NCBI GenBank assembly: GCA_008636045.1
Contig: SNRW01000037.1
Coordinates: forward strand, 1 to 37,231
Direction of reading: 5' to 3'
DNA length: 37,231 bases
From: Streblomastix strix
Taxonomy: Eukaryota
In this document: piece after piece, positions 1-30,500 of the stretch
Layout of the letters: the number at the start of each line of letters is the position of its first letter
How positions within the stretch are numbered: position 1 is the first letter of the stretch
Notes under the pieces: model-generated
Seen by the model: only the letters and a program-made list of their open reading frames with translations
Database searches by the model: none
Told to the model about the DNA's origin: nothing
Position numbers and translations under genes: made by a program

Positions 1-342
1 TTTTCGAATTAATTTATATGCTTTATCGTTATATTTTAATTTAAAAAGTTATGCGATTTATTCATTATTGCTATACCCATTAAATGAATATTATCCAAAT
101 TCAGGTATTAATGAGTTTAGCCATTGAAGAGTTAAATTATATTAGCTAATATCTTATACGTCATTTATATCAAAATATGGATGGCAATAACGTTGCTTCA
201 ACTCTTCATTAAATCCTAGTTTAAAATTAATTGTTGATATTTTATTAAATGGTATCTATAAAAAATTCCGTTCATAAGTATTGAAATATTTGCAATAAAT
301 AATGTTAAAATTAGTGGGGTCATCGAATTTGATAGTTGTCAT
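1..342 (-). CDS. AEP-superfamily (PrimPol/NCLDV-herpes-like) primase, N-terminal part
   Basis: ATG at 342, open to base 1 with TAR=Gln: MTTIKFDDPTNFNIIYCKYF...GFNEELKQRYCHPYFDINDVQDISQYNLTLQWLNSLIPEFGQYSFNGYSNNEQ. NE...HPYFDxxD resembles AEP motif I. The paralogue at 13.3-14.7 kb shows motif II/III-like segments. Confidence 0.65.
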
Positions 343-464: not shown

Positions 465-3400
465 TAACTATAAATAGTAACTTGAAAATGACATAAATTA
501 ATCATGGATTGATAATAATTGAGTTAATTTCTTTACTTCCTTATCCACTTTTATATTATTAGCTTTCATAAAATTATAGGTATAACTACCAATTGTATTT
601 TCATCAGTTACATATGTAAAATTTCTCAAAATAGGTGGAAAATTAATACATTTATTAATGTCTGATATATGTCCTTTAATTATCGCAATGAATAATTATC
701 CAGCGATTGCAAATCTGGTAAGTTTCGACTCAATTATATTTATTCATTGTTATTTTTATTTATCATTTGTTACGTTAATTACTTCTTCTATTATTCCTGG
801 CATATATATTTTCCTCTATGTGTAAGGACATAGTTCGTTCTACTAACAGCTCATAACACTATGATATAATGAATTAATATCTAAGCCTACTATATTAATA
901 ACCGCATTATTCATTTCGATTACTTTTATTTTGTTATCTTCATAAAATAATTTTTTAATTTTAGTCTAACCACGAATATTTACCAGATTCATTACATTTG
1001 ATAATCCACTTGTGATACTTCATCTTAATGTTTAATATACTTAAAAGTTATTAATTGTTGTAGGTAAATTATACTTACTATAAAATTTCTTTAATTGGAT
1101 AATAATTTCATCTCTTACTCATTTCTATTTCCTTTCGTTTAGTTACAATATAAGCTGCACTATCTGACATTGTCCTTAGTATATGATCATGAATTATCTA
1201 TGCGATCTAATGTAGATCTATTTTTAAATGTAAATTTCTCGTGGCAAATACAACAAGGCTTTTTTCATTAACAATCGAAAATATTAATAATCATCATTAC
1301 TTACATTATTAGTTATATCTCTTTTGGCAGTTTGATCTTATTATTTATATCCTAACACTTTAGTATTCTTATACTAGTTTGTGAGATAAAATAGTGAATT
1401 AAATGTTGGTTAGCTATAATTTCCATCTAGCGTAAAATCACTATATGCGATTGAATAATTTATAGCGTTAGCGCAACTAGTCATTGATATATGTTATAAC
1501 ATATCAACCTTGTGTTCGAAAAATAGGTTATTAAAATTTAATAATGGTTCAATCAAAATTTAGTATGTAATATATTATAGTGACGGAGATAATCCCATCT
1601 GTTTTCAAATTATTTATAATCTTAGAGATATAATTAATATTCTTGATCAGATATAGTAAAATTTTTCAATGTGTTATTGAAATCTGATTACTCAAAAGGA
1701 GCTGATTGATTTAATTAATCTTCATAATCATCCCCCATCAAATCGTAGGGGAATAAACATTTAGACCATTAACGACCCATGTCAAATGGCGTTTAACCTG
1801 AAAAATTAACTACCAATTATTTCAGCGTCATTGGTGGAGCAACATATAAGAAAGTATCAAGAAATTTAAGCTTTATTGATAGATTATTATGGGATACTAT
1901 TAACTGCTTACACAAAGCAGGGGAACCTATATGATTTGTTATTTTCCACTAGCTAGATTACATATGGGGAAAGAGTAATGACCTATCAAATTCTGCAGAG
2001 TTATATCCGATTACTGGAACTTCGATTGAATAAGGAATAGTTTCATCGGTATAATTATTATCCTGTTTAATTTATACTACTTCGTTAAAGAGTTATTTTA
2101 GCCATTAATTAACAAAATTTTACTACCTTATATCAAAATATATAGATTTATTGCTTTTGGATGAGTGTATGGTTGATGCTACACTTAAGGGTATAAGTTA
2201 ACTTATTAATTTGTTTTCTTTCCCAAATTTAGTATTTATTTTTTTTTCATAAGTTTCAAAATCGTAAGTGATAAAATATTACGAAAGTCTAAAATTTGAA
2301 TATCTATTGTTAGTAAGATGGTAACAGTAATTCTTATTTTACATAAAGTGGAGTATAAATGGTCACTGCTGATCGTCAAGTATGATTTATTTCACTATTT
2401 TTTTTGCTTTACGTTTTGCGATATATTTCTTCATGATCTCTTTAGTAAGCTAATCTTATTTAAAGCAATGATTCTTGCAATTAAAACAAAATAATAGTCC
2501 AGTAAGACGTTATTTATTAGTCAATAATAATATATGAATATTCGTACCGTTTAATTCCTCTGATTAAATAAGTAATAAATTGATCTCATCATCTCCTTTA
2601 GTACGAAAAGATTAGGATAAGAAATAATGAAAAGAATCCTTCATTTATTCGTAAGAGAAGAGATTAACTGATAATTTTAAATGCTGATGGATTTTCTATA
2701 TATCTGTTGCGTAATTGAATCCTTCAAATGTTTGAGGAATAATCTCACCGTAAAATAAGATACTAATTTCTTTCATCTTATGAAGCACTTAACTATCTCT
2801 ATATCTTTTCTCTTTAGTATCTTTCAATAAGTTTCTCGCTATTGCTTCCAAAATACAAGTATTAGGATAGGATGAATTAATATATCTGAGACATAAGTGT
2901 TTCTTACTTAGAAGCATTTTAATGAAGGGATTGGTTTTCCACTAATAGGAAGGAGATAAGTAATGACACAGATAGAATATATCGCTATATGTTTCTCTTT
3001 TGTATCGGTAAGAGTTTTTTCATATATAAATATGATTATTGATTAAATATACTATTTGTATAATTCGATATCATATCAGCTTCTTATGAACATCGATGCT
3101 CTTCTTTCTGTCATTGATTCTCCAGGGATAATATAACCGTAAGTAATTCGTTCATCATTATTCTTATTTCTATCTTTTCGCTTGTAAATAAACCCTAAAT
3201 CGATAGCTAATTTATACATCTTAGGAGCCATATTAATGTGAATTTGATCAATGAAATTATATATATCTAATATACTGATTGTCTAATTATTATAAAGCGC
3301 TGTAGTTATTGGGTTACGTTCGATATGATTCTAATCTTAGAAATTAGATTTGGCATCAAGGAGAATTTTAGTGAAATCATCTAGAGGTTGGGCTAATAAT

Positions 3401-3911: not shown

Positions 3912-4340
3912 TAGTATAAGATAGATAAAACCTGTATTAATGAGAAATATAATACATACTCAAATTAAGACGAAGATATAGATCAAGCGAGAATAAATAA
4001 TTAAAATATGCTATTTATGGTGAAAATTGCTCCCATAAACGAAAACAGTACAATTTAAGGGAAAATAAAATCAAGGAATTATACATGCAGTTTTTTTATT
4101 TATTTTGCCAATTAATAACGATAGGCTGTGTATGGAAAGCCAAAATTAGTAAAGTTATTGTTTATATATATTCAAATAGAAACGTTCAATACTAATTTGG
4201 TGAAAAAAGATAATTTTAAGAGCAATTTTCACCATAAGTTGTATGTTTTGAATATTTATACCCGCTTGAACTATATCTTCGTCTTAATTTGAGTATTTAT
4301 TCAATTTCTCATTAATACAGGTTTCCTACTTACTATACTA
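3912..4340. repeat. ~430-bp fold-back element with ~121-bp imperfect inverted arms (3912-4032 and 4220-4340); MITE-like or a Polinton terminus
   Basis: CCTGTATTAATGAGAAAT...TACTCAAATTAAGACGAAGATATAG...TTATGGTGAAAATTGCTC is the reverse complement of GAGCAATTTTCACCATAA...CTATATCTTCGTCTTAATTTGAGTA...ATTTCTCATTAATACAGG. Outer ends are TAGTATA and TATACTA. Confidence 0.9.
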
Positions 4341-5246
4341 ATCGCATGTAGTCCAGTTATCAAGTCAGCAATGCATACCAATTACGTAAATTATTTAATA
4401 TATTAGAATGCCAGATTCCAATTTCTGAAAATTAAATCGATATCCGTTAGCTTCTACGGACTACTACCTAATAACTCATCTTTATTCACTGTATAATATT
4501 TTGCCGTAGAAATAATTGGAATCACTTAGCAGAAAACGAATGCATGAGAATTTATTTTGAATTTTATTTTTAAATCACCAAATAGGCCATTAGAATAATC
4601 AGCGAAAGCAGAGAATATCATAAGGTCATCAAGCGAAATATTAACTCTGAAACGTATTAAAATTATATATGGAACAGATGTTTGATTTTCTATTAGTTCT
4701 TCAATCTCTTGCTTACTAATATATATTCCACACGCAGATGTATAAAATTTATGAATATTCTCTTAAAGGAAATAGATAGGCTTTCTATTATTTTTCTCAT
4801 TTTTTGGCTTGATTGTATTATAATTAAATGATTCAATTGTTGCGTCATTATATAGACTTCCATCAATGGTTTTACCTCTGTGATAGATAGTGTATTCACT
4901 AATAAGATTTGAACCTGATTTGAAGCCTACAAATAGAGCCAATCTGTCATTATATGATTCGTCAATTTTATCAAATTTATCATCGAGTTAGATATTTGCT
5001 GTTAGCACTACCGACAAGAACAAATTATATATATATCTATGTGATATTGTGGTCTGTGTCTGATAAACTAATAATTATCTCCTTATCAAACAATGCTTGC
5101 TTTTATGATTCAGGTTTGATTTCCATGACTGAATAATGGTGTTCTCCGCCATTAGTGAATGGAACAACAGCATTACCTAATAATGTTTCTTCAATGGTTC
5201 CTATTTATTGTAAATGTATAGCTTTCATTAAAAATCTATTCATCAT
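4341..5246 (-). pseudogene. Putative major capsid protein (double jelly-roll), 5' part; frameshifted and cut off at the fold-back element
   Basis: Reads ...FVGFKSGSNLISEYTIYHRGKTID...NDATIESFNYNTIKPKNEKNNRK...TSACGIYIS...ISLDDLMIFSAFADYSNGLFGDLKIKFKINSHAFVFCQV...FTQLVCIADLITGLHA and then stops abruptly at 4341. The capsid call rests on context, beta-rich character and recalled similarity to metamonad Polinton-like capsids. It has not been verified by search. Confidence 0.55.
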
Positions 5247-5361
5247 TTATATTCAATAAAAAATGAAATAGTTTAATAAGTACTTAATGAAATATAAAAA
5301 CGTTGATTAATGAAACATCGAGTTATAAAACATCAATTATTTCATTGGAATTGACACGATA

Positions 5362-5478
5362 ATTTGGTTTGAATCATGAATGACTTTTGACTGCACCGAG
5401 TGCATCGAGTGCATCGAGTCAGAAACTTTCATAAAAAACAGCTGCTAGCCTACCATTCTGCCAGAAGTGAGAAATATT
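5362..5478 (+). repeat. Iteron-like repeat, copy A
   Basis: TTTTGAC, then TGCACCGAG TGCATCGAG TGCATCGAG, TCAG, an AT-rich spacer, and CTGCTAGCCTACCATTCTGCCAGAAGTGAG. It differs from the reverse complement of copy B at 4 of 117 positions. Confidence 0.95.
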
Positions 5479-5529
5479 AGAAATAAATATTCCTAACGAT
5501 TAATGAATTGAATTTTACACTAATAATTT

Positions 5530-5844
5530 TCATTGGTTCTATAATTATATGCTTCGACTCTGTAAATCAATAGGTAATTTTTATCTTAAATATTCGCCGT
5601 TTCTTAACGTATCAATATCTTATCTAAATTATTCATTTTTATCCGCTCCATAGCCATAACCAAGAAATGAGCTAGCAACATCTAACCATTTATCTATTGT
5701 TTAGTCTATGGGACTGAAAGCTGCAAGTATTAATTTAGCAAATTGTTTTATGAACGGTTTATAAACGTTATCATTAATCCACAAAATACCATTCCTTATT
5801 TTTTAAACTAATTATTTGATTTTCGATAATACGCCGACTGCCAT
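5530..5844 (-). CDS. Small viral protein (104 aa) with an N-terminal amphipathic helix; possible membrane-penetration protein (adenovirus pVI/adintovirus PX-like)
   Basis: Intact ATG to TGA with TAR=Gln: MAVGVLSKIKQLVQKIRNGILWINDNVYKPFIKQFAKLILAAFSPIDQTIDKWLDVASSFLGYGYG... It lies next to the putative capsid gene. Function is inferred from the helix pattern only. Confidence 0.6.
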
Positions 5845-5913
5845 CGTTTATTTATAATAAAAATCAAATTTTATATGTATTTTTTTGGATTTGAATAAGA
5901 GATTATATTTTTA

Positions 5914-6030
5914 AATATTTCTCACTTCTGGCAGAATGGTAGGCTAGCAGCAGTTTTTTATGAAAGTTTCTGACTCGATGCACTCGATGCACTCGGTGCA
6001 GTCAAAAATAATTCATTATTCAAACCAAAT
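5914..6030 (-). repeat. Iteron-like repeat, copy B (inverted relative to A)
   Basis: CTCACTTCTGGCAGAATGGTAGGCTAGCAG...CTGACTCGATGCACTCGATGCACTCGGTGCAGTCAAAA is the reverse complement of copy A. Confidence 0.95.
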
Positions 6031-6039
6031 CTTCGTTCC

Positions 6040-7650
6040 GATTTCACAGATTTCGTAAGTTTATTTCATAAATAATACATTTCACTTGCGTAATATTTGT
6101 AAACATCAGCTGAATCATATGGAATTGACTCTTATTTTTATGAAAATTAAAAGTATAGCATTTTAAATTAAGCATTTAAAATATAATAATTCACTGAAAA
6201 ATTATTCTGTCTTCCGCCCTATGTTCTATATATTGCTGCAGGGAAGCTTAAACTTTTACCATCAGCAGGTATTACAGAATCAGAAATACGACTTACTTCT
6301 TACGTTCTCCATTGCAAAAGTTTTGATTCGAAATATTGATTGAATACGCATACTCTGCAAGTGCCATCATCAACGATATAGAAAGTATTATATGCTGATG
6401 AAGGGAAAAAATCATTAATTATGAATTAATTGAACTCATTTGTTATCGTATATTGTGGTTGTGGTTATGAATCAGATTATTTTTCATGTTTAATTATTAC
6501 TTCGTCGATGAAATAATAAGGTAATGCTTCATATGATGCTGATTCATTGGTGTTTGTGCTGTTCGCATAGTTATCAAGGATAGACGTTCCTTGAAATTCA
6601 TAATGAAACATATTTAACTATCTACTAACGGCTACCTACAAAGCTGACGATTTATCATAAATGTCATTGAACATACATATAGCGTAAAACTCTTGTTTTT
6701 TTAACATGAATTGCCATATATTTCGAATTAGATGGTAGAGCTTTTTACTGATTATCGAAAATAATTTATATATGGTTTATTGTGCTTCATAATTGGCGTC
6801 TAGTTGTGCCAATTTTGCTCCAAAACTATATGTGATAAATAGTCAGTCTTTAATGAAATATGCTGCTCTATCTGCTTTATATATTGCTTGTTCATCTATT
6901 AATTTAATTTCACTGTTCAAATAATTAGTTTTATTTAATCCTTACACTCCTGCCTCGATTAAATAAGTTTATTTTTTCACTGTTTCATATACAAGCGACT
7001 GTATTGCGAATGTTCCTTTTCTATTAACATTCCACGTATCCATAATATCAATTTTTTCATCATTATTAGCATCATAATTTATTTTTTTGATGGTTCATAA
7101 TATTTACAATAAGTAATGTTAAGCACGAGAGCAGTATTTGATGGGAGCTACCTAGGGCATATAATATATAGCCCGTTTTAGTCGATATAACAAAATACAT
7201 TATATGTATTTTGAGCATCGGTTCCACTAATACAATCAATTAATCACCTGCTTTTAATCTTGCTTCTAGGGTATAACTTTTGAATAAATTTCCGTTCGGA
7301 AATCGGCTTATTGTTGCATATGATGCTGTTAGCGTAATTATATCCCCATAAACGATTAATTACGGAACTGAACCACTGGATGCTAAGAAACTTTTTCGCT
7401 CAAAATATGAACTCAAATCAAGTTTCGTTATAGCATTCAGCACTGGTGGTTCGAACACTTCATTCGAATTACTGACTATATCATCATTATTTTTCATCTG
7501 TTATTGCAAAATTTGGACTCCAATTGGAACAAGTTGTGGTATCTCACCAATAGGCTTAGGATAACGTTCTTTGATGTATTCATACAATTATAATATGTCA
7601 GATAAACCAGTAACATCTAGCAATCTTTCTTCGAAATATACGTTCGACAC
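6040..7650 (-). pseudogene. Hypothetical viral (possibly virion) protein, ~500 aa, degenerate
   Basis: Long minus-strand frame under TAR=Gln, (M)SNVYFEERLLDVTGLSDILQLYEYIKERYPKPIGEIPQLVP..., with GTG where the shared upstream motif predicts ATG. It has internal frameshifts and the 3' end is approximate. Confidence 0.55.
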
Positions 7651-7689
7651 TTATATTCAATAAAAATAAATAATTAATCCAAACAATTT

Positions 7690-9696
7690 CAAGCAACTAT
7701 ATGCAGAAGCATGGATTCATGGTCTAACCCAAAATGTATTGATTGCAATATATATGTTCTATATCCATACTGTTGCTTGTGTAGTGAGATGTACATATCT
7801 ATCAGTTGTAAACATAGTTAAATAATCTCTGTTCATTGGACAAAATAGTGCGAATAATGGTGGTGGATTAAAAGTACAATATCACGATCTTATGATGATT
7901 ATATTGTATCATTTGGCTTGATAACAAAATAAAAGAAATACGTTATTCCATCTATTTTTATGAAATTAGATTATGATGCTGTAAATCCGGATAATATTAC
8001 TGGTGGAGTTAATACTTGATAGAAATTATAGAACTTTGATGTAATAACATTATTGACTTCGCGCCATGTTGGATAGGTCTCATTTACCAGTTCTTGAGAG
8101 TCATCATCTTCCATACCAAACGGATTAATATATAACAATCGATCTGTTATATTTTATGAATTTTATCCCGTTTTTTGCACATAAGCCGTTGCATTAATTG
8201 AAATGATTAATGTTGAAGTTTTATTATTTTCATTTAACCTACATACCCGAAAAACTTATCTATTCAAACCAACTGGCTCCAGCAGTATAACATCAAATTT
8301 CCCCTTTATTTGTAATATGGAGTTTAAAACCACCGTATGGACTACCAACTTGCATACATAATTCGCTTACTGTTGGCGCATAAAATTCTGGTAAAGTTCC
8401 TATTTTAATATTCACATTTGGCACAAATCCTTCAAATTTTGGAGTAACTTATAATTAAAATAAATATAAATTTCTTAATTTATCATATACAAGTAATGAG
8501 TAATTAAAACCAAATTATGTTTCATTAAAAGTAACTTAACTAGTTAAAATTTCATCTGTTGCTCTTCCACTAGAAAAATCTGATGATAATCTATCACCAT
8601 CACCAGCTAATTGAACTGATGTATCATCCTTGTCTGATTTTATAAATTAAGTTGCTGTTAGATTACCACTTATTGAACCGTTATAGATAGATGAAACGAA
8701 TTCACTTTTTACTGCTCTCAATGTTATATAATCATCATCTGTTGGTTCAGGTTATGGTTAATCTTGTGTTTTTTTTCGTAGTATACCATGAATTAATTAA
8801 AGTTCTTATTCTGTTTTCTTCATATAATTTGAATCATCAATAGAACTGGAAAATTCAGAGATTGGTTTAGTACCATCAGCTCCAAGTAAAACAACAGTAT
8901 TATCTGCATCAGATTTAATAAATGATGATCCTATTACTGTCGACATTCCATCGACAGAACTTATGAACCTACAACAATTATTAAACGTCTTTTTTGCATC
9001 TATTGTTTATGCAGTACCTACGGTCATATAACCACTTAAATCAAAGTCACCAACATCAATTTATGCTATCAAATAATCAGTTTCTGTTTTGATATAAGTT
9101 GTAAATTGACTTGCCTTCAACATCAACAAAGCATCATCTTCTCCTTTAGTGTATGAATCAATCAGTTATATTTTATCAGCTTTCAACAACAGCAGAGCAT
9201 ACTCTTCTTATTTAGTGTATGAATCAATTAGCTATGTTTTATCAGCCATCAACAACAACAGAGCATCATCCTCAGTCCTCGAAAATACATCAATTTAATC
9301 TGAAATATTTAATTTGTCAACGTGTAGGGCATCGGCTTCAGTCTTCGAATATGCATCAATTAGCTCTGATTTATCTGCCTTCAACAACAGGAGTGTATCA
9401 TCTTCTTATTTATTATACGCATCGATTAAATCTGTTTTATCATCTTTCAACAACAGCAGATCGTCATCTTCTATCTTTGAATAAGCATCGATTTAATCGG
9501 ATTTATTTAATTTTTTATCAAGCATTTCATAAATTTCTTCGCGATTATAAGGTTCTAGTGCCTCATTAATTATATTTAATAAATTTTCAATATTTTTGAC
9601 ATCATAAATCAAACCAATTGTGTTATATCCAGTTAAACCATAAAGTATCTTATCATGATTTAAACCAAATTCAAGCATATGTAAATTTCCATCCAT
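7690..9696 (-). pseudogene. Fibre/spike-like protein with 22-aa tandem repeats and repeated C-terminal modules
   Basis: ATG at 9696, open ~1.4 kb with TAR=Gln. Contains (IDxYxKxEDDxLLLLKADKxxL)n, AQTIDAKKTF, FIKSDADNTVVLLGADG, FIKSDKDDTSVQLAGDG and KIGTLPEFYAP. After a TGA (~8302) and a frameshift (~8235) comes a second YVQKTGQ..Q.I module. Confidence 0.65.
9100..9545 (-). repeat. 66-bp coding tandem repeat, 6-7 diverged units
   Basis: Successive units: IDAYSKIEDDDLLLLKDDKTDL, IDAYNKQEDDTLLLLKADKSEL, IDAYSKTEADALHVDKLNISDQ, IDVFSRTEDDALLLLMADKTQL, IDSYTKQEEYALLLLKADKIQL, IDSYTKGEDDALLMLKASQ. Confidence 0.9.
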
Positions 9697-9724
9697 TTAA
9701 TAAAAATAAAAATAATTATTTAAT

Positions 9725-10330
9725 GGCATAATATTTTATTTAAAAACAATCATTAATCCTTTTGATGCTGCTCTACTAATTTTACTAGTTATTTCTCCTA
9801 AATCTAAAATACTTATTATTTTTCTTATTTTTTATAAACATATTTTATAGCTATCCTTTATTAAATTTACTTTTTCGACGTATAATTTTAGAATATTTGC
9901 GTTCCCAATTATTATCTCATTTAATATTTAAGTGGAATCACTGCAAAACCTTCCACAACATCCTTCATCCTCTATACTTTACTAAATTTAATTTTCAAAG
10001 ACGTCAAAAGTGTAAACAAAAACTCGAATCAATTAATTTTCAAATAATGCAAAATGCATTGATTCTTTAACCATATGCTCGTCTTCACTAATGATATCCA
10101 ACAGCCAACGACACATTTACGAATCTGGAGTAAAATTTTCTTCAAATATTGAACTTCTGCGCCTTACTGACAATGTTGGTGTTTAACATCTGATAACCTG
10201 TTGCTGGAATGGTTGCTGAAATGGTTGTTAAAATGGGTTAATTTGAGATGCAACAGAAACTACAACCGCAATCACTTTAATTTCCTATTCAAATTATGGT
10301 TCTATTTCTGGAATGGTGGAATTCTTTATT
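9725..10330 (-). pseudogene. Hypothetical viral protein, degenerate
   Basis: Frame ...IPEIEPQFEQEIK...NPFQQPFQQPFQQQ...EGCCGRFCSD... lies behind the shared TTTTATT..TAAA motif, with ATA at the expected start. Frameshifted. Confidence 0.4.
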
Positions 10331-10423
10331 TTAATCACAATAAAATAATTAATAATTCACGTTAAATAAAACCATAAATTCATGTTCATCAAAAGTATAT
10401 GATTTTGGCACGAGAAAATAATA

Positions 10424-10517
10424 TGGTTAATGAATGACTTTTGACTGCATCGAGTGCATCGAGTCAGAAACTTTCTTAAAAAACTGCTGCCTGCCTGCCA
10501 TTCTGCTAGAAGTGAAA
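10424..10517 (+). repeat. Iteron-like repeat, copy C (two 9-bp units)
   Basis: TGGTTAATGAATGACTTTTGAC TGCATCGAG TGCATCGAG TCAGAAACTTTC...CTGCTGCCTGCCTGCCATTCTGCTAGAAGTGA. Same orientation as A and one 9-mer shorter. Confidence 0.92.
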
Positions 10518-10632
10518 ATCAATAATAAAAATAAATTTGTACCAAATAAAAAGTTTAAAAAATAAATAATTGAACTTATTTTAAAAATAGACGAGTTTGT
10601 ATTTTATAAATCAAATTTTTTATCTGTAATTA

Positions 10633-12967
10633 ATGGCAGAAAAAGAGTTTGAATCTGTAGGATGGGTCGGCAATTAGAATATATCAATCAGCCAAACCAG
10701 ATAAATAATCATTGTATTACATCCAACTGAAATAATTGATGATATGTGTGAAGCGTGGAAGAAAAACAGAAAAATTAACAAAATATTATTAGATATTCAA
10801 ACAAATATTTCAGAAAATAATTAGAAATATAATTATTTAACTATTGATGAACATATCAAAGATGCAATCACTCCATTATATAATTATAAAAAACATAATA
10901 ATGGAAAATAAAGTTCAAAAACAGGTTCAGCAGTTGAATTAGGCAAATGTGATGAATAATTATGCGTAATGGATTTTGATATCAAGAAAAAATTATTGGA
11001 TGAAAAAAATAACTGAAATAAGAAATTAAACTATTGAAAATTTAACTACAAACGTTGGATTCATTAAGACAGTATATGGAGGATTACACGCATATTTGGA
11101 TATAGATAGATATCCACTAAAAATTAATTCATAAATCAAAATCATTAAAACTGAAAACTTTGATGTAGACATAATTGCACATATCGATGAAAATTACAGA
11201 CTTGTTGTTCTTCCGAAATCAACATATAAACATTAAGAAAATAATTAAAGAAAAACATTAAAATGTGAGGAATAATTATTAATTGATGGAATTTATCATT
11301 TATAGATACATAATGATGCTTAGAAAGTCGAACGAGAAATAACGTTATTATGAATATCTACAGGATTAAATGGTCTTGCATTTGTGGATGAATTACTTGA
11401 AAATGAAACTAAATAATACATTGATGATGTTTATAACAAAGTTTAACCATAGAATAATTTAACTAATAATGCAATTTAAAATTTGGAGCTCAAAAAATCA
11501 AGATTTTATTCGAAGGTTAATCCTTGGGTGCTATAAAAGATTGTAAAATATCATAATCCATAGTATTACATCGATATTATAAAGCCTTATCTTGCAAAAT
11601 TATTAAAAATCGAATAAATATAAATAAATAAATAATAATTTAATTTAAAAGATAATTTTTCATTATAAGATATATAGAAAATTATTGCAAATAAAGTATA
11701 TAAAAAGATTGACTAAGTAGCTAAAGATTTAACAAGAATATTATATTGTGCTCCATGTGGTGGCTTGGTATTTATAGTGAAATAATACGATGCAATCAAT
11801 GAAAAATATAAAATTTAATACATAAATAAAACAGCAATATATGAACAATTATAGATGATTATTGTATGAAAAGAAAATTAAAAAAAAATTTATAATTAAA
11901 ATAAGTTTGCGAATAATTTAATTCTTTATATATGATGAAGAGTATTAGATTTATTAGTTAAGACCCTGAAATTTTCAGGATATTTTAAGGCTTTAAATAT
12001 TAATAATTGCCTACTGTTGATGATGACCTCATTAACGATTATTTAAATTTAATATATGATACGATAGCAGCAGGTGATGGAAATTTATATAATTACATCG
12101 TTAATTGGATTGCATTTGTTATATATAAAATGTTAGTGTTAAATCAGAGGTGGCATTGATATTGTAAGGCAGTCAAGGTATAAGCAAAAATAGATTCACA
12201 GATGTTTTATGTGAATTATTGGCTGGTTATTCAATTAAAAATATTACAGATATTAGTGAATTTACAGGCCAATTTAATTCAGTCGTTGAAAATGTAATCC
12301 TTAGAATAGCCAATGAACATAAAAACTTTGGGGATGCAAGATATTCGAACATGGATGCATTGACGTCAATTATAACGGATAATCAAATAAGAATAAATGA
12401 AAAAAATTAACCGCGTAGAACATCATAAAATGTAATGAATTTGATAATGGTAACCAATAATGATTTCCTTATGAAGATTGAAGCTAATGATAGGCGTTAT
12501 GTTGTATGTAGATGTAAAGCAGTTCATAGAAACGACGTTGAATATTTCACTACTTTATCAAATGGTTTCACAACTGAATTTTACAATAATTTATTTACTT
12601 ATTTTATGACCAAAAATATATGTAATTGGAATCAAAGAATCATTTCATTGACAGAAGAGAAAAAAATATAATTAGAGCATCACGTTCATAACTCGATGAT
12701 GTAATCTTATAAAATTATAAAGCGTTTAAAGAAGGCATACCTTGCACTATTGCACTATAATTCAATCTATGCGATGCTAAAGAAAAATCATTCTAATTAT
12801 AATTAAAAAATAAATATCAAAGAATATAAAAAACAGTATTAGGAAAACGAATATGGATATACAAATTTAATGAAGATTTAATAAATTTTTATGATTGATT
12901 AAGAGAAGAAGACCAAGACATCGACGAAGATGTAAATGAAGACAACAACGAAGACATTAACATTTGA
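10633..12967 (+). pseudogene. Prim-Pol domain plus superfamily-3 (D5/NrS-1-like) helicase, frameshifted
   Basis: N-terminal KTGSAVELGKCDEQLCVMDFDIK, IKTVYGGLHAY and RLVVLPKS (Prim-Pol-like DxD, TxxGGxH, VVxPxS). C-terminal Walker A ALILQGSQGISKNRF (G>S), Walker B-like LRIANE, RINEKN, motif C NLIMVTNN and Arg finger DRRY. ATG 10633, TGA 12965-12967. Confidence 0.88.
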
Positions 12968-13106
12968 ATAAATTTATTATTTTTCTCAATTATTGGCCAA
13001 TTCATTAAAATCGACACAATCCAATTTATTAATACAATAAAATTCATTGGTTAGCCTATAAAACATCAATAAAATTATGTTCTAAATCCATAGGGTTTCA
13101 TCAATG

Positions 13107-13231
13107 TTTCTCATATATTGGCCAGTTGTCCAGTTGGCTACAGTTTTTTTTATAGAATTATCTGACTCACTTTACCCAATCCACCCAGTCCAGTCAAAAG
13201 TCATTCATTAACCAATCCATTTTCTTGTGTC
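13107..13231 (-). repeat. Iteron-like repeat, copy D (diverged, inverted relative to C)
   Basis: Its reverse complement shares 24 identical nt TGGTTAATGAATGACTTTTGACTG with C. It then has three 9-mers (TGGACTGGG TGGATTGGG TAAAGTGAG), TCAGA, an A-rich spacer and 8-bp-period units. Confidence 0.85.
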
Positions 13232-13259
13232 ATTTACGAATATTTCATTGATGTTTTAT

Positions 13260-14688
13260 GACTCAATCCACCAATTCCTTATCAAACGTTCAATATATTT
13301 TGTTCAATAAGCAATGATTTCATCATTTATTTCTTCAATAAATTTTAGATTTCCATTCATTTTCATCCATAAACTATTCTATTATCTTTCCTATGTAGTT
13401 ATGAGAATATGGAGAGTGTCATACGTACAAAGAATATAACTTAATAATGAACATCATTTACGAACATCACTAATCCAATTCAAAAATCATTATTAGTCAT
13501 GTCATTAATTAATTTAAACCATGTGCTTATTTTTTTTCACTTTAACGAAGTGCAGCTATTTCCATACATTATATTACATCAATATTTATATAACATAATT
13601 TACTTGTTTAAATTATTTAATTTCTTTGATATGGGGAACTTTCCATATTTTCATAACTGTTATAGAATCATTTGTTTGTGAACGCCTGCCTGTAATATAT
13701 CTTAACATTATTAATAGTTTCATCATAGTTATGCTGTCTAGTTCGTTAGTTATACCGTTTCGTGTATCATTCATTAAGAAATTCTTCTATATTAAGATAA
13801 TGATGAATTTGGATAGTTGATTTCTTCAAATTTTCAATTGTAGTTTCTAATTTATTATTAAACACAATCTTCGAATCTTTATTGAATTTAATAAATATTC
13901 ATTTTAAACAATATTATCAATATAAAGTTCTAAATATGTGTTTTTGAAATAATTTTTCTATCGCTAAAGATTTATTTAGTATCTCGAATGATTTCAGTTA
14001 CTCATGAAACATAAATTTTTTCTTACTCCAACTCTTTCAAGTTAAATACTTTTTTCAAATAGCGTTTTGATTGTTCGATAACCACTCTAACTATATTCAA
14101 CAACTACTTTGTAGAAAATAACATCAGATATATCAGATTCTACTTATTAAAATTATACAATTTATTTAATTAAGTTATCAATCTCTTAATATATCTTAAT
14201 TACAAATAATATTTCTATTTCATTATTGTATGTTTTATTAGAAAGTATGCGTTTAAATATTTTTTGTGAATTACTGATTTAATTTTTGTATATATTAACA
14301 GAATTATCAACGAATTCAGAAATGTTACTAATAAATCAACTTATTTTTTAATTTTCAACTTTATTTACGAATTCTTTCATAATAGTTTGATATAATCTTT
14401 TTTAGTAGAATGTTTTATGAATTGAAAACTTTTTGCAACATTAAAAATGGAATTAAAATTTTTAATTTAACTAATTTTGAAATCATTAGAATACCCATCA
14501 ATTGAACATTAACCAAATTCATTAAATAACGAATCTAAACATTTTGATACTGATAAATATTATTTGTTAGGTTCAGTACAGTTAGGTTGATGATGATTTT
14601 TGATATGTACTTTTATATAGTTACAATAAATATATTCTATATAATATTAATGTAAATAAATTAAAATTTGGGATAAATTGAGGAACAT
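13260..14688 (-). pseudogene. AEP primase-like gene, degenerate paralogue of the gene at 1-342
   Basis: QYLSVSKCLDSLFNEFGQCSIDGYSND (~14485-14560) aligns with QYNLTLQWLNSLIPEFGQYSFNGYSNN. It is followed by frameshifted KFSIH (motif II SxH) and EFVDNSV...QKIFKRILSNK (motif III-like). The motif I segment appears deleted and the ends are approximate. Confidence 0.65.
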
Positions 14689-14986: not shown

Positions 14987-16391
14987 TCACTCTAGTTCAA
15001 TGTCAATGGAATTATACAGGCTGTTGAACTCAATTTCGTTAACAAAGCCAAACAGTGTTGGTTTCCGCCCTCGCTTTTTAGGTTATGGCTCGATTTACTC
15101 ATATTTTATGATATCTCTCCTCGTTGCTATCAAATGATGAAAAAAACCAGATATTACATGTGCTTCCGCTCTCATTGTTCCAGGTTTTTGTATCAGTTCC
15201 GATCTCGAAAGTGATGTTCTGGAGTTAAGAAAAGTTGTAGCCGCTCCGTAAGCGTCAATTGCATGTCTTATTATATCGTGCAATGGCAGATCACCTTGAA
15301 TATCCCGCGTTTTATTTATTTATCCCTTTAAAGTTCCGAATGAAACCACGTCAAGCACTTGCAAAAATTTTGACGAATGAAGTGGGATAGTTCTCAATTT
15401 TATGTTATTATTTGCTAGAAATTGGCGTGTATATTCAACACAATGTGTTGAATGGTTGTCACAAAGTAGAACTCCAGGCTTGTGAGAAGTACCAAGGCGT
15501 TCTTTGGCTGCATCAATAGCGGGCACGAATCTGTCGCCAAGCCACCCTTCCCATACTGGAATTGTGATGTATGATTTTGCGGTATATGTAAAATCAGCAT
15601 ATATACCTGCAGTTACGTCCGATGGTATCCATTTGTCGTCCCATTGAGTTCCTTTCAAAATGAGTAAAGGTGGAATGGATTCGCAGCTTAGTGAAATCGC
15701 ACCCAACAATGACATTTTAGGTTCGTTTCTGTTTATTGGTATATTCACGTCAGTTGCATCATCTTAGCGTCTAACTACAACGTTTTTACTCCTTGCATCC
15801 ACGAAAAATTGAATCCCGCTTTCGTTAATGCAATAAATTACATCATGAGGCAGGCCAACAACTTCCTATTCTAAGGTATCCTCTTATTTTCTTACATCAA
15901 CTTCTTTAACATTTACTCTACCATTTTCAATAGGTTTTGCATCGGTAGATTCTAAGATATCCGAATTTCTATCCACTAAGCGGCGAACGACCCCATCTGA
16001 TGGCGATTTACCATTTATATCTTCAATGACTTCCTTCATCTTTACATGACTCATTAGTTGTCGCTCATCGCTTTTCTTAAGAATGGTTTGTACGAGTTAT
16101 TTTTCTTAATCATTTGTCAAAATTTTATTTTCTTTATTCTCAACTTTTTCATAATGGATGCCGTGCCTCAATTACGAAATGTGCGGTTGTGTACATTCAC
16201 AGAATGTGGCCATATGGGTAGGTGAAATCATTTCTAATCCAAATTAATTTGTGTAGGAATCTAGTTCTGCTACAAAATCGTCGATCTTTTCAGGTTCCGC
16301 ATCAATAATATCTCTTTAAAAACTTCTCAAATTTCTTCAATCTCAACCCTCTGCCTGAAGAAAATTCTATAAGTTCGTGTGTTGCATCCAT
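14987..16391 (-). mobile_element. pogo/Fot1-like (DDE_1) DNA transposase pseudogene, DD35D spacing
   Basis: With TAR=Gln the two track ORFs join into one frame: HTH-like N-terminus, IYCINESG (first catalytic D>N), IPPLLILKG, VLLCDNHSTH, IPLHSSKFLQVLD (35 aa between D2 and D3) and a basic tail PKKRGRKP. TGA at 14987-14989, frameshift near the 5' end. TIRs not resolved. Confidence 0.9.
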
Positions 16392-25777: not shown

Positions 25778-27512
25778 ATGATTCTTTTCGCGGTTTTGTC
25801 GTTGCTGTTTGCTGTTACACGAGGGGATGATTTTAATATGTGGTTGAACGACACAATTCCAGACGCTCCCTTTCTATATACTCATACCATGACATGGCTC
25901 AATGATGACTATATATACTTGTGGGGTGGCAAGTTAAAAGATGATACTATAAATAAAGATCTTTATCTCCTGAATAATAAAACTATCACCAAAGTTAATA
26001 TATCTGGAACACCTCCGGCTGTATATGGGCATACAGCTGTCCGTATCAAGAATGGGGGTTTAATAGGATTATTAGTTGCTGGTGGAAAAGATTCAAGTGG
26101 AAACCCCATTTCTGAAAGTGGAATATTTATCCCATCTACTATTGATTATAGTTTGATATTATTAGATACTTTTGGGAATTATTATTAATTTATATTTTCA
26201 AATAACATTTATATATTCATTCAGAAACAGCAACCTATTATAAACTTGGTGATTTACCAAATGCTCTATTTAATCACACAATGGCTGTTGTATAAGTATG
26301 TTATTTAATTATTTCACTTTCTATTTAATTATTAATATTCATTTATTGTATATAGGACAATAGAACTGCTATTATTTATGGTGGTTTAACAGGAAGATAA
26401 GGAAGTTTCACGGCATCATTAAGTGTTTATGCATTATATGTTGGTATATTAATTCTTGATTAATTTGCTTTCAAATTTTATTCTGTTACTTTAATATTTA
26501 TTCACACATCCAGATTTGAAAGATCAAACAACAGTATCCGGCACTTGGATTGCAGTTGTCTAAGAAGCTTCTAAAGAATATGAATTAATCTCATTACCTG
26601 TTGTTGCAAGTGTTCTTGTATATGATGAAGAGATTGGAAGTATTTATTTGATGCATTATTATTTATATACTAATTATATTCATATAATTACTTATCTATT
26701 AATTACATTTATATTATCACTTAACCATTAATTACATTTATATTATTACTTAACTATTAATTACATTTATATTATTACTTATATATTAATTATATTCATA
26801 TAATTACTTAACTATTAATTACATTTATATTATTACTTAACTATTAATTATATTTATATTATTACTTATATATTAATTATATTCATATAATTACTTAACT
26901 ATTAATTACATTTATATTACTTCTTATTCAGACACACCATCTGGTAAAGTATGGTCATTCCATTTAGTTGGTGGAATTACAAATGAGAAAGATGATACAA
27001 TCAAAGATAAAGAATTGAAGATACATAAACTCATAATAAGTATGATTTGCTATTATTATAAGTATTAATATTATTTTATTTAATATTATGTATTATATCA
27101 TTATATAAATATAAATAATATTATAATTATATTATCATTATATTATCATTATATAAATATAAATAGCTGAGACAGAGACAGGTAAGAAATATTAAGGTTA
27201 ATGGCAGCGTGTTTTCTATCGTCCAAATTCATTACCTCCCCGAGCTGGTCATCATGCACATGCTATAAATACAAATATATTCTTATGGGGAGGTGGTAGT
27301 GCAGATACTTCTGTATTCTCTATTGTAAGTACAGGTATTATTATTATATATTATAATAACTAATATCATATATAATATCATTTATTATATAAAGATGAAC
27401 TTGCCTGGTCTTCCTTACTTCCAAGACTATTTGATCATCCTCCTCCTCTCCAGGTATATATATATATATATATATATATAATTATTATTATTATTATTAT
27501 TATTTGTAGTAA

Positions 27513-27570
<58 letters not shown>

Positions 27571-30500
27571 ATATATATTTATTATTCATTATAAATTAAG
27601 AACTTTGCATCCACATATGATGAAAAGAATAACTTACTCTATATTCATGGAGGATATGCAGAAGAATAAGGACCTGCTTCTCCACCGTATGAGAATAATT
27701 ATATAATAATAATAATATATATAATAATAATAATAATATATTTATATAATAATAATATATTTATATAATAATAATATATTTATATAATAATAATATATTT
27801 ATATAATAATAATAATATATATAATAATAATAATAATATATTTATATAATAATAATATATTTATATAATAATAATATATTTATATAATAATAATATATTT
27901 ATATAATAATAATATATTTATATAATAATAATATATTTATATAATAATAATATATTTATANNNNNNNNNNTAATATATTTATATAATAATAATATATTTA
28001 TATAATAATAATATATTTATATAATAATAATATATTTATATAATAATAATATATTTATATAATAATAATATATTTATATAATAATAATATATTTATATAA
28101 TAATAATATATTTATAGAGTACCCAACACACGTACATATTGGTTCCATCATGATGATTGTGCATCACGAACTCATTGCAAAGACTGTATTGGTACTGATA
28201 CAAATTGTATATGGTGCTCAAGTAAAGCGAGATGTATATCATCCAAACTCACTGCAGAATAATTAACAGATGAAGAAATAGATCATAAGAAGAGAAATGG
28301 AGAATGCACTTCATAATCTGAATGCAATGCTGTATACAAACCTGCTTATGAAACATGTGCTTCATTCCTTACTGATGGTGCATAATGCCCAATTGGAAAA
28401 CCAATTCCATATAAACCAGGAGCTACAACATCATAAATGTGTTTCTCATATGAGAATTGTACAGATTGTAATTAAGATCCAAGATGTGGATGGTTTGTAT
28501 TGATTGAATGGATTATGAATGAATACATTTATTTACATTTATATCATTGTATGTATCTAATTAAAGGTGCGATATGTTATTCACATCTCCAAAGATTGTA
28601 TATGGATGTGTAGAGGGAACTGGAGATGGTCCATATTTAGGTATTTAGATTATTATTATTATTATTGTTATTATTATTATTGTATTCAATTATTCATAAA
28701 TATTATTATTGTATTCAATTATTCATAAATATTATTATTGTATTCAATTATTCATAAATATTATTATTGTATTCAATTATTCATAAATATTATTATTGTA
28801 TTCATTTAAGGAATTTGTGGTGATTGGGCATATGCTAATAAACAAATAAACTCAATTGAAGATGAAGGATTAAATGATGTTGAATTCGATCAATCAGATT
28901 TATATTCGTTTGTTTTCATTATTTAATTCTTTATTATAATATAATAATATCTCTTCATTTAATAGTCATTCTGAAGAACCAAGTCGTAAGATTAATGACG
29001 ATCCAATATAAATTGAGTGTGATCGAGTTGCTGCCAGAATTTCAATATATGAACCCACTGAAAGTATGATAATTGATATGGATAATAATTTGTATATTAC
29101 ATGAATATTTTTCTTATTAATTTAATTTAATTTAATTTCATTTAGATTAATCCTATTTTGAGAACGCAACAATTAATATGTATTGGTACACATTAGGTAT
29201 TATACTAAATATATATTCTTATTTCTATGTTTTATTATATTTTAATTACTTTATATTATTTATTATTTATTATATATTATATATTATATCTTCATTATAA
29301 CTTCAGGATCTGACAGTGATGTTGATTCATATAATGTATACTTACAATATGGTGAAGAAAAAGATGTATGATAATATTGAATGAATGAAAATAATGGATT
29401 ATTATAGAATAATGTTAAATATTCAATATTATTATATTTTGTATTAAATATTCATAAAAACACTTAAAGGCAAAAACATAACTGCTATATGAGAATGCAC
29501 ATAGTTCAGGGTATAATTAATATCTTATTACTGTAATACGATCTAAATAATATATTCATTATATTTTATTTTATTATAACTATATTCTTTATTGTATATA
29601 CCCTATTAATTATTAGGTACGAATATGTTTTGTTACCTCCTCTGAGCAATTGGACAAAAACAAATAAAAAAGATGAAGTTTGTTTTATTAGTTTTTATAG
29701 AGTTGATTTTATTATATTTATCATTTTTTTTGCTCATTCTCACTTTTTTCTAAATTTCAATATAGAATGCATTCCAGAACAATACATTATTATTTATTTT
29801 CAAGTAATTCAATTACATGAAAGGAGAATACATTGAATTAGGAAAAGTATGTTTATTTAATTATGAATATAATTTAATTTGAAAGTACTTATTTTCAAGT
29901 AATTTCCATGTTTTTATATAATTAATGTTAATATTTTTTTTAATTCTTTTGTTCATATCAATAAAGAAACGCATTTTTGTCACAACTGCTGAAGTTAACT
30001 TTACATTCCCAAAAGATAAGGGAAACTATTCAGATCCATAAATGAATATCACTTGGGGTGGTGAGGTTAATTAATTAATGAAAATAAAGAAAGAATAAAA
30101 CAACTCATTATTTAATATTTAATTTTATCTTTATTTATTTTTTTATTTGTTTTATTTATTTATTTATTTATGTGTTTATATATTTATTTGTATTATTTAT
30201 ATATTTATATATATATTTGTATTATTTATATATTTATATATTTATTTGTATTATATATATGCTTCATCTCTTAGCTACGTTACCCATATCATTCATTTGG
30301 TGCAGACACAATCACAATCGAACTCCATCAATACAAAACAAATGAAACTGTGAAAGTATATTCAAAAATTTAATTTAATTTTTAATTCTGTTATAAATCT
30401 TTCTTTTTTATTTTATTTTATTTTATTTATATTTTATATTATATTATATTATATATGTTTTTCATATTAAAGGATTAAGATGTAGTAGTAGAGAAAATAC

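Follow-up and report, generated by a model that had tools for sequence, protein, structure and literature searches.

Repeats that bracket a replicase module are already described in viruses of this kind: in the polisuviruses, as set out in section 13 of one preprint (bioRxiv 10.64898/2026.10.13.758929) and section 9 of a second source (PMC11296320), they are non-terminal and flank a primase-SF3 helicase. The earlier note on the present DNA, which stated that nothing comparable was described in Polintons, was therefore too strong. The locus analyzed here resembles the polisuviruses of those sections in both respects, and its virus likewise seems to carry more than one replicase. It differs from them in that a small gene next to the capsid gene is bracketed by the same repeat family, in that its sites have an internal grammar of 9-mers, spacer and 8-mers, and in that, of the four sites, the two flanking the helicase resemble each other least. 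Our literature search turned up no description of one site family shared with a structural gene.

The hrs of baculoviruses are known interspersed repeats implicated as origins and enhancers (passages in PMC3230853). Like these, sites A–D are several interspersed, intergenic, non-coding copies with repeat units of variable number and, in A and B, putative imperfect dyads in a double-stranded DNA virus. Unlike the hrs portrayed there, they belong to an unrelated virus group with unrelated sequence, measure ∼135 bp, stand as inward pairs around single genes, and do not keep a palindrome in C and D; an hr-like function for them is putative.

Two further comparisons apply. Shufflons and pdif modules combine short sites with a tyrosine recombinase. 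Alternating inverted sites around single genes recall this arrangement, but neither a tyrosine recombinase nor any other recombinase gene was found among the decayed ORF fragments scanned here. In P4/SaPI-type origins, iterons flank an AT-rich spacer; here too arrays flank an A/T spacer and the helicase folds like the NrS-1 and SaPI5 proteins, but there are four sites, two of them far from the helicase. A one-mismatch copy of the NrS-1 priming site (PMC8718748) lies 8–13 nt outside each edge; with 33 such words in 14.5 kb, we treat it as a lead only.

The viral element and its four sites

The window, by which we mean the whole stretch of 37,231 nucleotides, contains a broken Polinton-like virus that uses genetic code 6 and whose genes match Streblomastix strix proteins (Table 1). 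Fragments on its left resemble a family B DNA polymerase by their motifs but gave no significant database match. The second primase matches the N termini of the L006 and L008 primase-helicases (E = 2e-9 and 6e-12), and searches assigned no function to the long ORF outside C. The 5′ half of the capsid gene matches S. strix proteins at 76%–89%; its 3′ half was not found in the window. Together with the primase-helicase, which provides the replicase expected of a Metamonada-group virus, it bears out the Polinton context proposed earlier. No packaging ATPase, integrase, or terminal inverted repeat was found in the decayed fragments scanned, and the left end of the element runs off the window. The capsid start, table 6 and the primase-helicase are shared with the Metamonada-group Maverick/Polinton-like viruses of PMC10120064, and compared by eye the capsid start is like the S. 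strix MCP in Table S3 of that paper; the parts of it used here, text and supplement rows, make no mention of internal repeats.

Table 1. Features of the window (coordinates as window positions)
Feature	Position	Strand	Remarks
Second primase of another type, gene start	1..342	−	Begins at 342; outside every site pair
Fragments resembling family B DNA polymerase	744..3019	−	Motifs
Major capsid protein gene, 5′ half	4345..5246	−	Frameshift near 5030
18-bp arm and 6-mer TATTTC	5320..5343	+	Just outside A
Site A	5344..5479	+	32-bp outer part, ATGAAT edge at 5376, three 9-mers, TCAGA, A/T spacer, 8-mer part; points back toward 3′ end of 104-aa gene
104-aa gene	5530..5844	−	Table 6 only; eight TAA/TAG read as Gln
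Site B	5913..6048	−	Edge at 6016; 172 bp upstream of 104-aa start codon
Viral ORF	6066..6842	−	Outside B; antisense strand is marker for inverted 104-aa cassette
Long ORF with 66-bp coding repeats	8293..10356	−	Outside C
Site C	10398..10524	+	Edge at 10430; two 9-mers; 203 bp upstream of helicase start codon
Broken primase-SF3 helicase gene, NrS-1-like	10633..~12967	+	Start codon 203 bp from the edge of C
Site D	13103..13240	−	Edge at 13208; variant 9-mers and 8-mers; points back at helicase 3′ end
TATTTC again and complementary 18-bp arm	13241..13264	+	Just outside D

A single pattern (the edge, 4–34 nt, then GAGTCAGA) has exactly four matches in the window, at 5376–5423 (+), 5969–6016 (−), 10430–10468 (+), and 13161–13208 (−), and none in 100 dinucleotide shuffles, which confirms four sites in inverted pairs, A(+) B(−) and C(+) D(−). 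All four are intergenic and share a fixed module order; a profile of them found no fifth site in the 37-kb window or in 18 distant helicase-scan loci. Several details in the earlier note change. The shared edge stands, but the sites are ∼135 bp rather than ∼100 bp long, since a further ∼30 bp beyond the ATGAAT edge are also common to them. The two to three tandem 9-mers are clean in A and B (three units) and in C (two), but D has two and a degenerate third. For the three units of 8-bp period, agreement is weak in A–C, at 9, 9, and 10 positions out of 19, whereas D, with 12, shows the period more clearly. Both the 9-mers and the 8-mers of site D are variants, and D-type repeats are not peculiar to the helicase.

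The cores of A and B are 96% identical (100/104), those of A and C 85/95, and of B and C 83/95. Identities with D are lower (A–D 77/101, B–D 74/101), and C–D is the least alike pair (67/93, 72%). The outer flank is common to A and D, with 9 of 3986 background windows scoring as high, and a weak likeness of the inner leader links B and C (18–34 of 3986); a common outer flank of B and C was considered and dropped. So was a CACTA/Transib-type end lying 21 nt beyond the edge, since its first bases are not constant among copies. Possible conversion of A and B after insertion was set aside, as their four core differences fit equal starting sequences followed by decay. Only in A and B does the core fold better than its shuffles (z = −2.9 and −3.5), and in C and D it does not; with this restriction and no Rfam match, a conserved RNA structure is unsupported.

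The repeats outside A and D bear on whether the 7.9-kb A–D block could be a nested element of some age that inserted into a hairpin loop with a 6-bp target duplication, its decayed terminal repeats being A and D. Target duplications of 6 bp are typical of Polintons, and TATTTC stands at the same offset outside A and D, each time beside an arm of the 18-bp inverted repeat (17/18 complementary between the arm outside A and 13247–13264). We consider this origin improbable. A symmetric 6-mer arose in 449 of 20,000 random pairs, a chance of about 2% per pair with three pairs tried and the match spotted post hoc; a duplicated flank with a flipped 6-bp loop accounts for it equally well, and the block adjoins the capsid gene in at least three other copies.

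Related sites in other viral copies

Comparison between copies drew on predicted proteins, which include spurious splices, and on one sequencing sample. Eight of the 37 database homologs of the 104-aa protein have at their end a translated site directed back toward the gene (23 of the 37 are uninformative on this point), and the helicase homologs P0018 and P0049 likewise end in a site directed back toward theirs. The same site type is found at the same gene borders elsewhere. Behind the 104-aa gene, P0010, P0014, P0050, P0051, P0054, and P0057 have D-like 8-mers with an A–C-like spacer, and P0013 and P0066 a third site variant. P0009 looks like a hybrid, with a C-like flank, A/B 9-mers and D-like 8-mers. 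In contigs of the sequencing sample, D-type sequence is found joined to the upstream flank of the 104-aa gene, and the outer flank of D to an A–C-type core.

The site grammar occurs at seven places in six of 137 proteins, which had come in through viral queries, compared with 0–1 in 20 shuffles. Among these, P0026 and P0084 have a helicase core 55%–56% identical to that of the window, and their subfamily has the same layout as the window sites with a 9-mer of its own. In P0084 the 9-mer array is carried on both strands; just 1 of the 16 9-mers that could encode the forward peptide also gives the reverse peptide. A D-like trace behind the P0099 helicase failed the grammar test, the related virus L016 has no such site upstream of its helicase, the site patterns had no match in the viral or metagenome contigs searched, and translated site frames used as queries returned 0 matches. 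From these traces we infer variant and hybrid sites and a lineage-specific 9-mer in the distant subfamily. This 9-mer would fit the co-variation of iteron and helicase put forward earlier but would fit plain linkage too; the comparison covers two subfamilies, and linkage alone would produce it.

Because the site type recurs behind both genes, forms hybrids and keeps its layout in a distant subfamily, the sites are an old, virus-borne family and not an artifact. It is very doubtful that the sites stem from four insertions of an ordinary SINE- or MITE-like dispersed repeat into the intergenic DNA of an ancestral virus. In favor of this, alternating orientation of four sites is expected one time in eight. 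Against it, no extra site lies elsewhere in the 37-kb window, terminal repeats, a tail and an Rfam match are all lacking, and the layout is kept while the 9-mer differs between subfamilies. Moreover, seven of seven grammar-matched traces are tied to viral genes, albeit in a set of proteins obtained with viral queries. It is still less probable that pairing and rearranged junctions reflect amplification chimeras or misassembly of hundreds of similar copies. Fold-back contigs do occur among the homologs, no contig of the sequencing sample spans the stretch, and the S. strix assembly has a count of about 820 capsid genes (PMC10120064). However, with 4 core positions separating A from B and 26 separating C from D, the pairs do not look like fresh chimeras, and sites lie at the same borders in at least ten other copies.

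The bracketed genes and possible rearrangement at the sites

Sites A and B enclose the 104-aa gene, as proposed; the gene is conserved, and its ORF exists under table 6 only. The N-terminal half of the protein is basic and likely amphipathic. The product is possibly like adenovirus protein VI, as a candidate only, with an atlas score against pre-protein VI of 0.79, under the lead threshold of 0.9; it has no Pfam match and no credible PDB match, and searches of viral contigs with the 104-aa alignment and with a capsid fusion gave no match. The gene adjoins the capsid gene here and in three other copies, as a resident gene would.

The helicase gene changes frame near 11005, 11885, 12123, and 12660 and also has in-frame stops. 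The fold of an intact homolog, P0046, matches NrS-1, ASFV PrimPol, and the SaPI5 primase-helicase. The helicase gene is the only identifiable viral gene on the + strand, a narrower statement than the earlier one that it alone opposes its neighbors, as the genes to the right of D gave no identification. A joint of 12629 with 5377 in X2 was considered as insertion of a site into the helicase and dropped: at that point the helicase is similar to the outer flank of C, so a chance fit is likely.

The earlier note suggested that C-helicase-D could be an autonomous mini-replicon; as a replicon with cognate iterons it finds no support here. In its fuller form, this would make C-helicase-D an autonomous replicase cassette ending in the sites and A-gene-B a non-autonomous derivative with swapped payload. 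The outer flank common to A and D and the leader weakly common to B and C look as if one frame held two payloads; two further replicase-like genes lie in the region, descriptions of polisuviruses include repeat-bracketed replicases as well as a lone AEP element, and several helicase homologs sit on contigs of 2.4–3.0 kb. Short contigs are, however, usual in those collections, and we judge the cassette rather unlikely. Near-identical terminal repeats would mark a mobile cassette, and C–D is the least alike pair; no target-site duplication flanks C–D, the longest candidate being 5 nt, which is chance level. D-type 8-mers behind the 104-aa gene in six other copies are not helicase-tied, and the second primase lies outside all pairs. 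The translated site that comes first behind the helicase is directed away from the gene in both P0026 and P0084, and L006–L008 have no terminal repeats. Nor is there a clear helicase excess, because Monocercomonoides has six capsid genes and a six-member helicase cluster.

P0012 runs on into antisense sequence of the viral ORF beyond B (score 168, reached by 0/300 shuffles), and P0015 runs weakly into the same antisense (2/300 shuffles, 11 zones tried). Cassette junctions comprise three window-like, one clear inverted, and one weak inverted, and fold-back contigs confound the count: P0058 folds back on the capsid gene, and the 104-aa gene is present twice on each of three contigs, the two copies having the same first part. 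Since amplification chimeras are mostly inverted (PMC1855051, as an account of such chimeras) and fold-back contigs are present, the flipped junctions may be artifacts. There is no A–B strand switch among the 15 joints listed. Considered together, the hybrid sites and the single inverted junction that is clear are signs of recombination at the sites, as had been proposed, with the flips themselves less secure; the junctions suggest that A-gene-B may flip.

Possible functions of the sites

We favor, at a little below even odds (roughly 0.45), a model in which the sites are candidate hr-type replication origins or enhancers to which a viral protein likely binds, and in which viral copies likely also cross over at them. 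The four sites are copies of one non-coding repeat family lying between viral genes, and a viral protein such as the primase-helicase is the candidate binder. Homologous recombination or template switching between sites would keep them alike, and the same recombination would exchange site halves and flanks. The near-identical A–B pair would flip the 104-aa gene, and C–D would be too diverged to flip the helicase readily.

Sites that act solely as transcription signals, a promoter or enhancer at 5′ ends and a terminator or insulator at 3′ ends with recombination incidental, are unlikely. B and C do face start codons, 172 and 203 bp off, with a weakly shared leader; A and D stand behind stop codons with an outer arm in common; and the edge and array end contain TGAC and TGAGTCA-like words, a putative bZIP/WRKY resemblance. 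One and the same core facing inward from both sides of a gene would nevertheless be odd for a promoter, and tandem arrays around an A/T spacer suit an origin.

A bolder extension, which we hold to be distinctly unlikely, would make these viruses modular, cut by lineage-specific iteron sites that the primase-helicase recognizes, so that genes or blocks could flip, swap, and replicate separately and a flip of the small gene might act as a virion switch. The viruses concerned are oxymonad Polinton-like viruses with hundreds of endogenous copies, and the small gene is the one before the capsid gene.

According to two preprints (bioRxiv 10.64898/2026.06.19.733378; 10.64898/2026.10.13.758929), Polinton-like viruses commonly swap replicases, by a mechanism that is open. 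A defined site family, with a lineage-specific 9-mer and in a host with about 820 capsid copies, would offer a concrete substrate for tests of binding, origin activity, and module exchange. Should the sites be merely transcription signals, they would still be a rare mapped cis-element for an unplaced virus group.

Site anatomy and the surrounding virus

Four related non-coding sites, A and B around the 104-aa gene and C and D around the primase-helicase gene, had been claimed previously. They are real: the site pattern has four matches in the window against none in 100 shuffles, with no fifth copy in the window. Each is ∼135 bp long and comprises, in order, an outer part of ∼30 bp, the conserved edge (ATGAAT..TTTTGAC), two or three 9-mers, TCAGA, an A/T spacer, and a weakly periodic 8-mer part. 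Core identity is 96% for A-B and only 72% for C-D, and the A and B cores contain a hairpin absent from C and D. A further ∼55 bp outward is also common to A and D, and the leaders of B and C towards start codons are weakly alike. An Rfam search with the sites gave no match; some words within them resemble bZIP/WRKY motifs. Between the helicase stop and D the outer-arm box recurs in inverted orientation.

Coordinates of features in the window
Feature	Position	Strand	Remark
Second primase gene, type of retrieved loci L006/L008	1-342	-	start at 342; downstream of PolB-like fragments
121-bp inverted repeat	3912-4032, 4220-4340		84-89% alike
Site A	5344-5479	+	
Site B	5913-6048	-	
66-bp coding repeats	9113-9513		in long ORF outside C
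Site C	10398-10524	+	
Outer-arm box copy	13054-13090		inverted
Site D	13103-13240	-	
DDE_1 transposase ORF	14987-16231	-	open, 414 aa, E 5e-11; GC-richer island right of virus
AT-rich tandem arrays	26597-26985, 27650-28146, 28643-28816		29-bp and 19-bp periods; host part

Under the standard code the window holds seven ORFs of at least 80 aa; the genes open up under table 6. For the 104-aa ORF there are 14 direct homologues, each assigned to Streblomastix strix, plus 23 further cluster members. The C-D gene has 34, which carry NrS-1-like or D5 helicase annotations and come from S. strix, Monocercomonoides, and unnamed assemblies. A PDB search matched its product to the NrS-1 helicase (E 7e-26), and the structure model of an intact homologue, P0046, matches NrS-1, ASFV PrimPol, and the SaPI5 primase-helicase. 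The ORF left of A resembles a capsid protein that Bellas et al. (PMC10120064) list for S. strix; they count 820 capsid hits in the S. strix assembly. Because of these homologues, the NrS-1-like helicase, and the S. strix-type capsid, the finding sits within a decayed Metamonada-group Polinton-like virus. Fragments further left are, by their motifs, presumably PolB-like; database searches with them returned no match. Capsid homology ends at the edge of the 121-bp inverted repeat, and the 3′ half is missing, so genes further left may be joined via rearrangement. The host part of the window includes 10 N bases.

Sites and junctions in other copies

Scans of viral and metagenome contigs with the site pattern gave no related contig bearing it. 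Gene models of other copies often splice into adjoining DNA and report it in translation; DNA readings of these copies are inferred from peptides. Eight of the 37 homologues of the 104-aa gene terminate in a site that faces back towards it, three continue into the capsid gene, the window's own arrangement, and one enters a forward hybrid site. One homologue clearly and another weakly continues into the antisense strand of the ORF that lies outside B, and 23 are uninformative. Inversion of A-gene-B is plausible from the A-B identity and P0012, a protein of another copy. Twin copies of the 104-aa gene occur on three single short contigs (P0051/P0058, P0057, and P0063); one pair flanks a capsid gene, by locus tag, and P0058 folds back onto the capsid gene. 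Amplification chimeras are 85% inverted and arise about once per 10–22 kb, according to PMC1855051. The twin contigs are either fold-back chimeras or real palindromes, and together with the P0058 fold-back and the chimera rate they keep inversion at plausible.

Among the 99 homologues of the helicase, P0018 and P0049 likewise terminate in a site oriented back towards the gene. P0026 and P0084 belong to a separate helicase clade with strong support (55–56% core identity) and carry a 9-mer array with a different unit, on both strands in P0084. The site grammar occurs at seven places in 6 of 137 proteins, versus 0–1 in 20 shuffles. The system is not universal, since L016, which is distantly related and has PolB-like, ATPase, and helicase genes, lacks a site upstream of its helicase. 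Positions 1–9384 of L016 hold an intact-looking Polinton-like set (A32-like ATPase, PolB-like ORF, primase-helicase), with two triple 9-mer repeats inside a small ORF (6629–6715); the contig, assigned to a bacterial MAG of sheep-colon origin, is likely a eukaryotic-virus contaminant.

Contigs came from three runs of one termite-gut sample. In X1, the set from one run, 14,584 contigs align to 5200–13400, mostly at <95% identity, which shows a large diverged family of copies. Among the joints listed (15 of 187), at least one connects D-type sequence with the upstream flank of the 104-aa gene, and at least one links an A-C-type core to the outer flank of D. Thirty contigs diverge just outside the edge of A. 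One X1 contig of high depth leads from 13265 back to 13016, as expected of a tandem unit or circle junction.

Nature of the sites

A reading of C and D as cognate ends of an active element does not fit, because no other pair of sites is less alike, no target duplication flanks them, and D-type repeats also recur around the 104-aa gene. Just beyond A and D a 6-mer is directly repeated, enclosed by the two arms of an 18-bp inverted repeat; this may reflect an ancient target duplication made by the entire A-D block, or a flipped loop. Polintons typically generate 6-bp target duplications, P4 and SaPI origins have an iteron layout, and shufflons and pdif modules have alternating inverted sites around single genes.

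Replicase modules flanked by repeats, together with a lone AEP element, are reported in bioRxiv 10.64898/2026.10.13.758929; PMC11296320 describes repeat-flanked helicases and proposes inverted repeats as primase-helicase origins. A shared site family bracketing a replicase as well as a gene next to the capsid gene was not found in the passages compared (these two, PMC10120064, bioRxiv 10.64898/2026.06.19.733378, PMC8718748, PMC1855051, and PMC3230853); figures and preprint supplements could hold one, and subscription papers lay outside the scope. The sites are a variant of already known repeat-bracketed modules.

The site layout appears to predate the helicase-subfamily split, with the 9-mer drifting per lineage and site halves mixed among copies. 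Such a pattern fits a functional cis-element undergoing exchange between copies, a parallel being the baculovirus hrs (PMC3230853). The repeat system is real, old, and virus-borne; its most likely reading, with a probability of roughly 0.45, is a putative family of hr-like origins or enhancers that would also mediate exchange.
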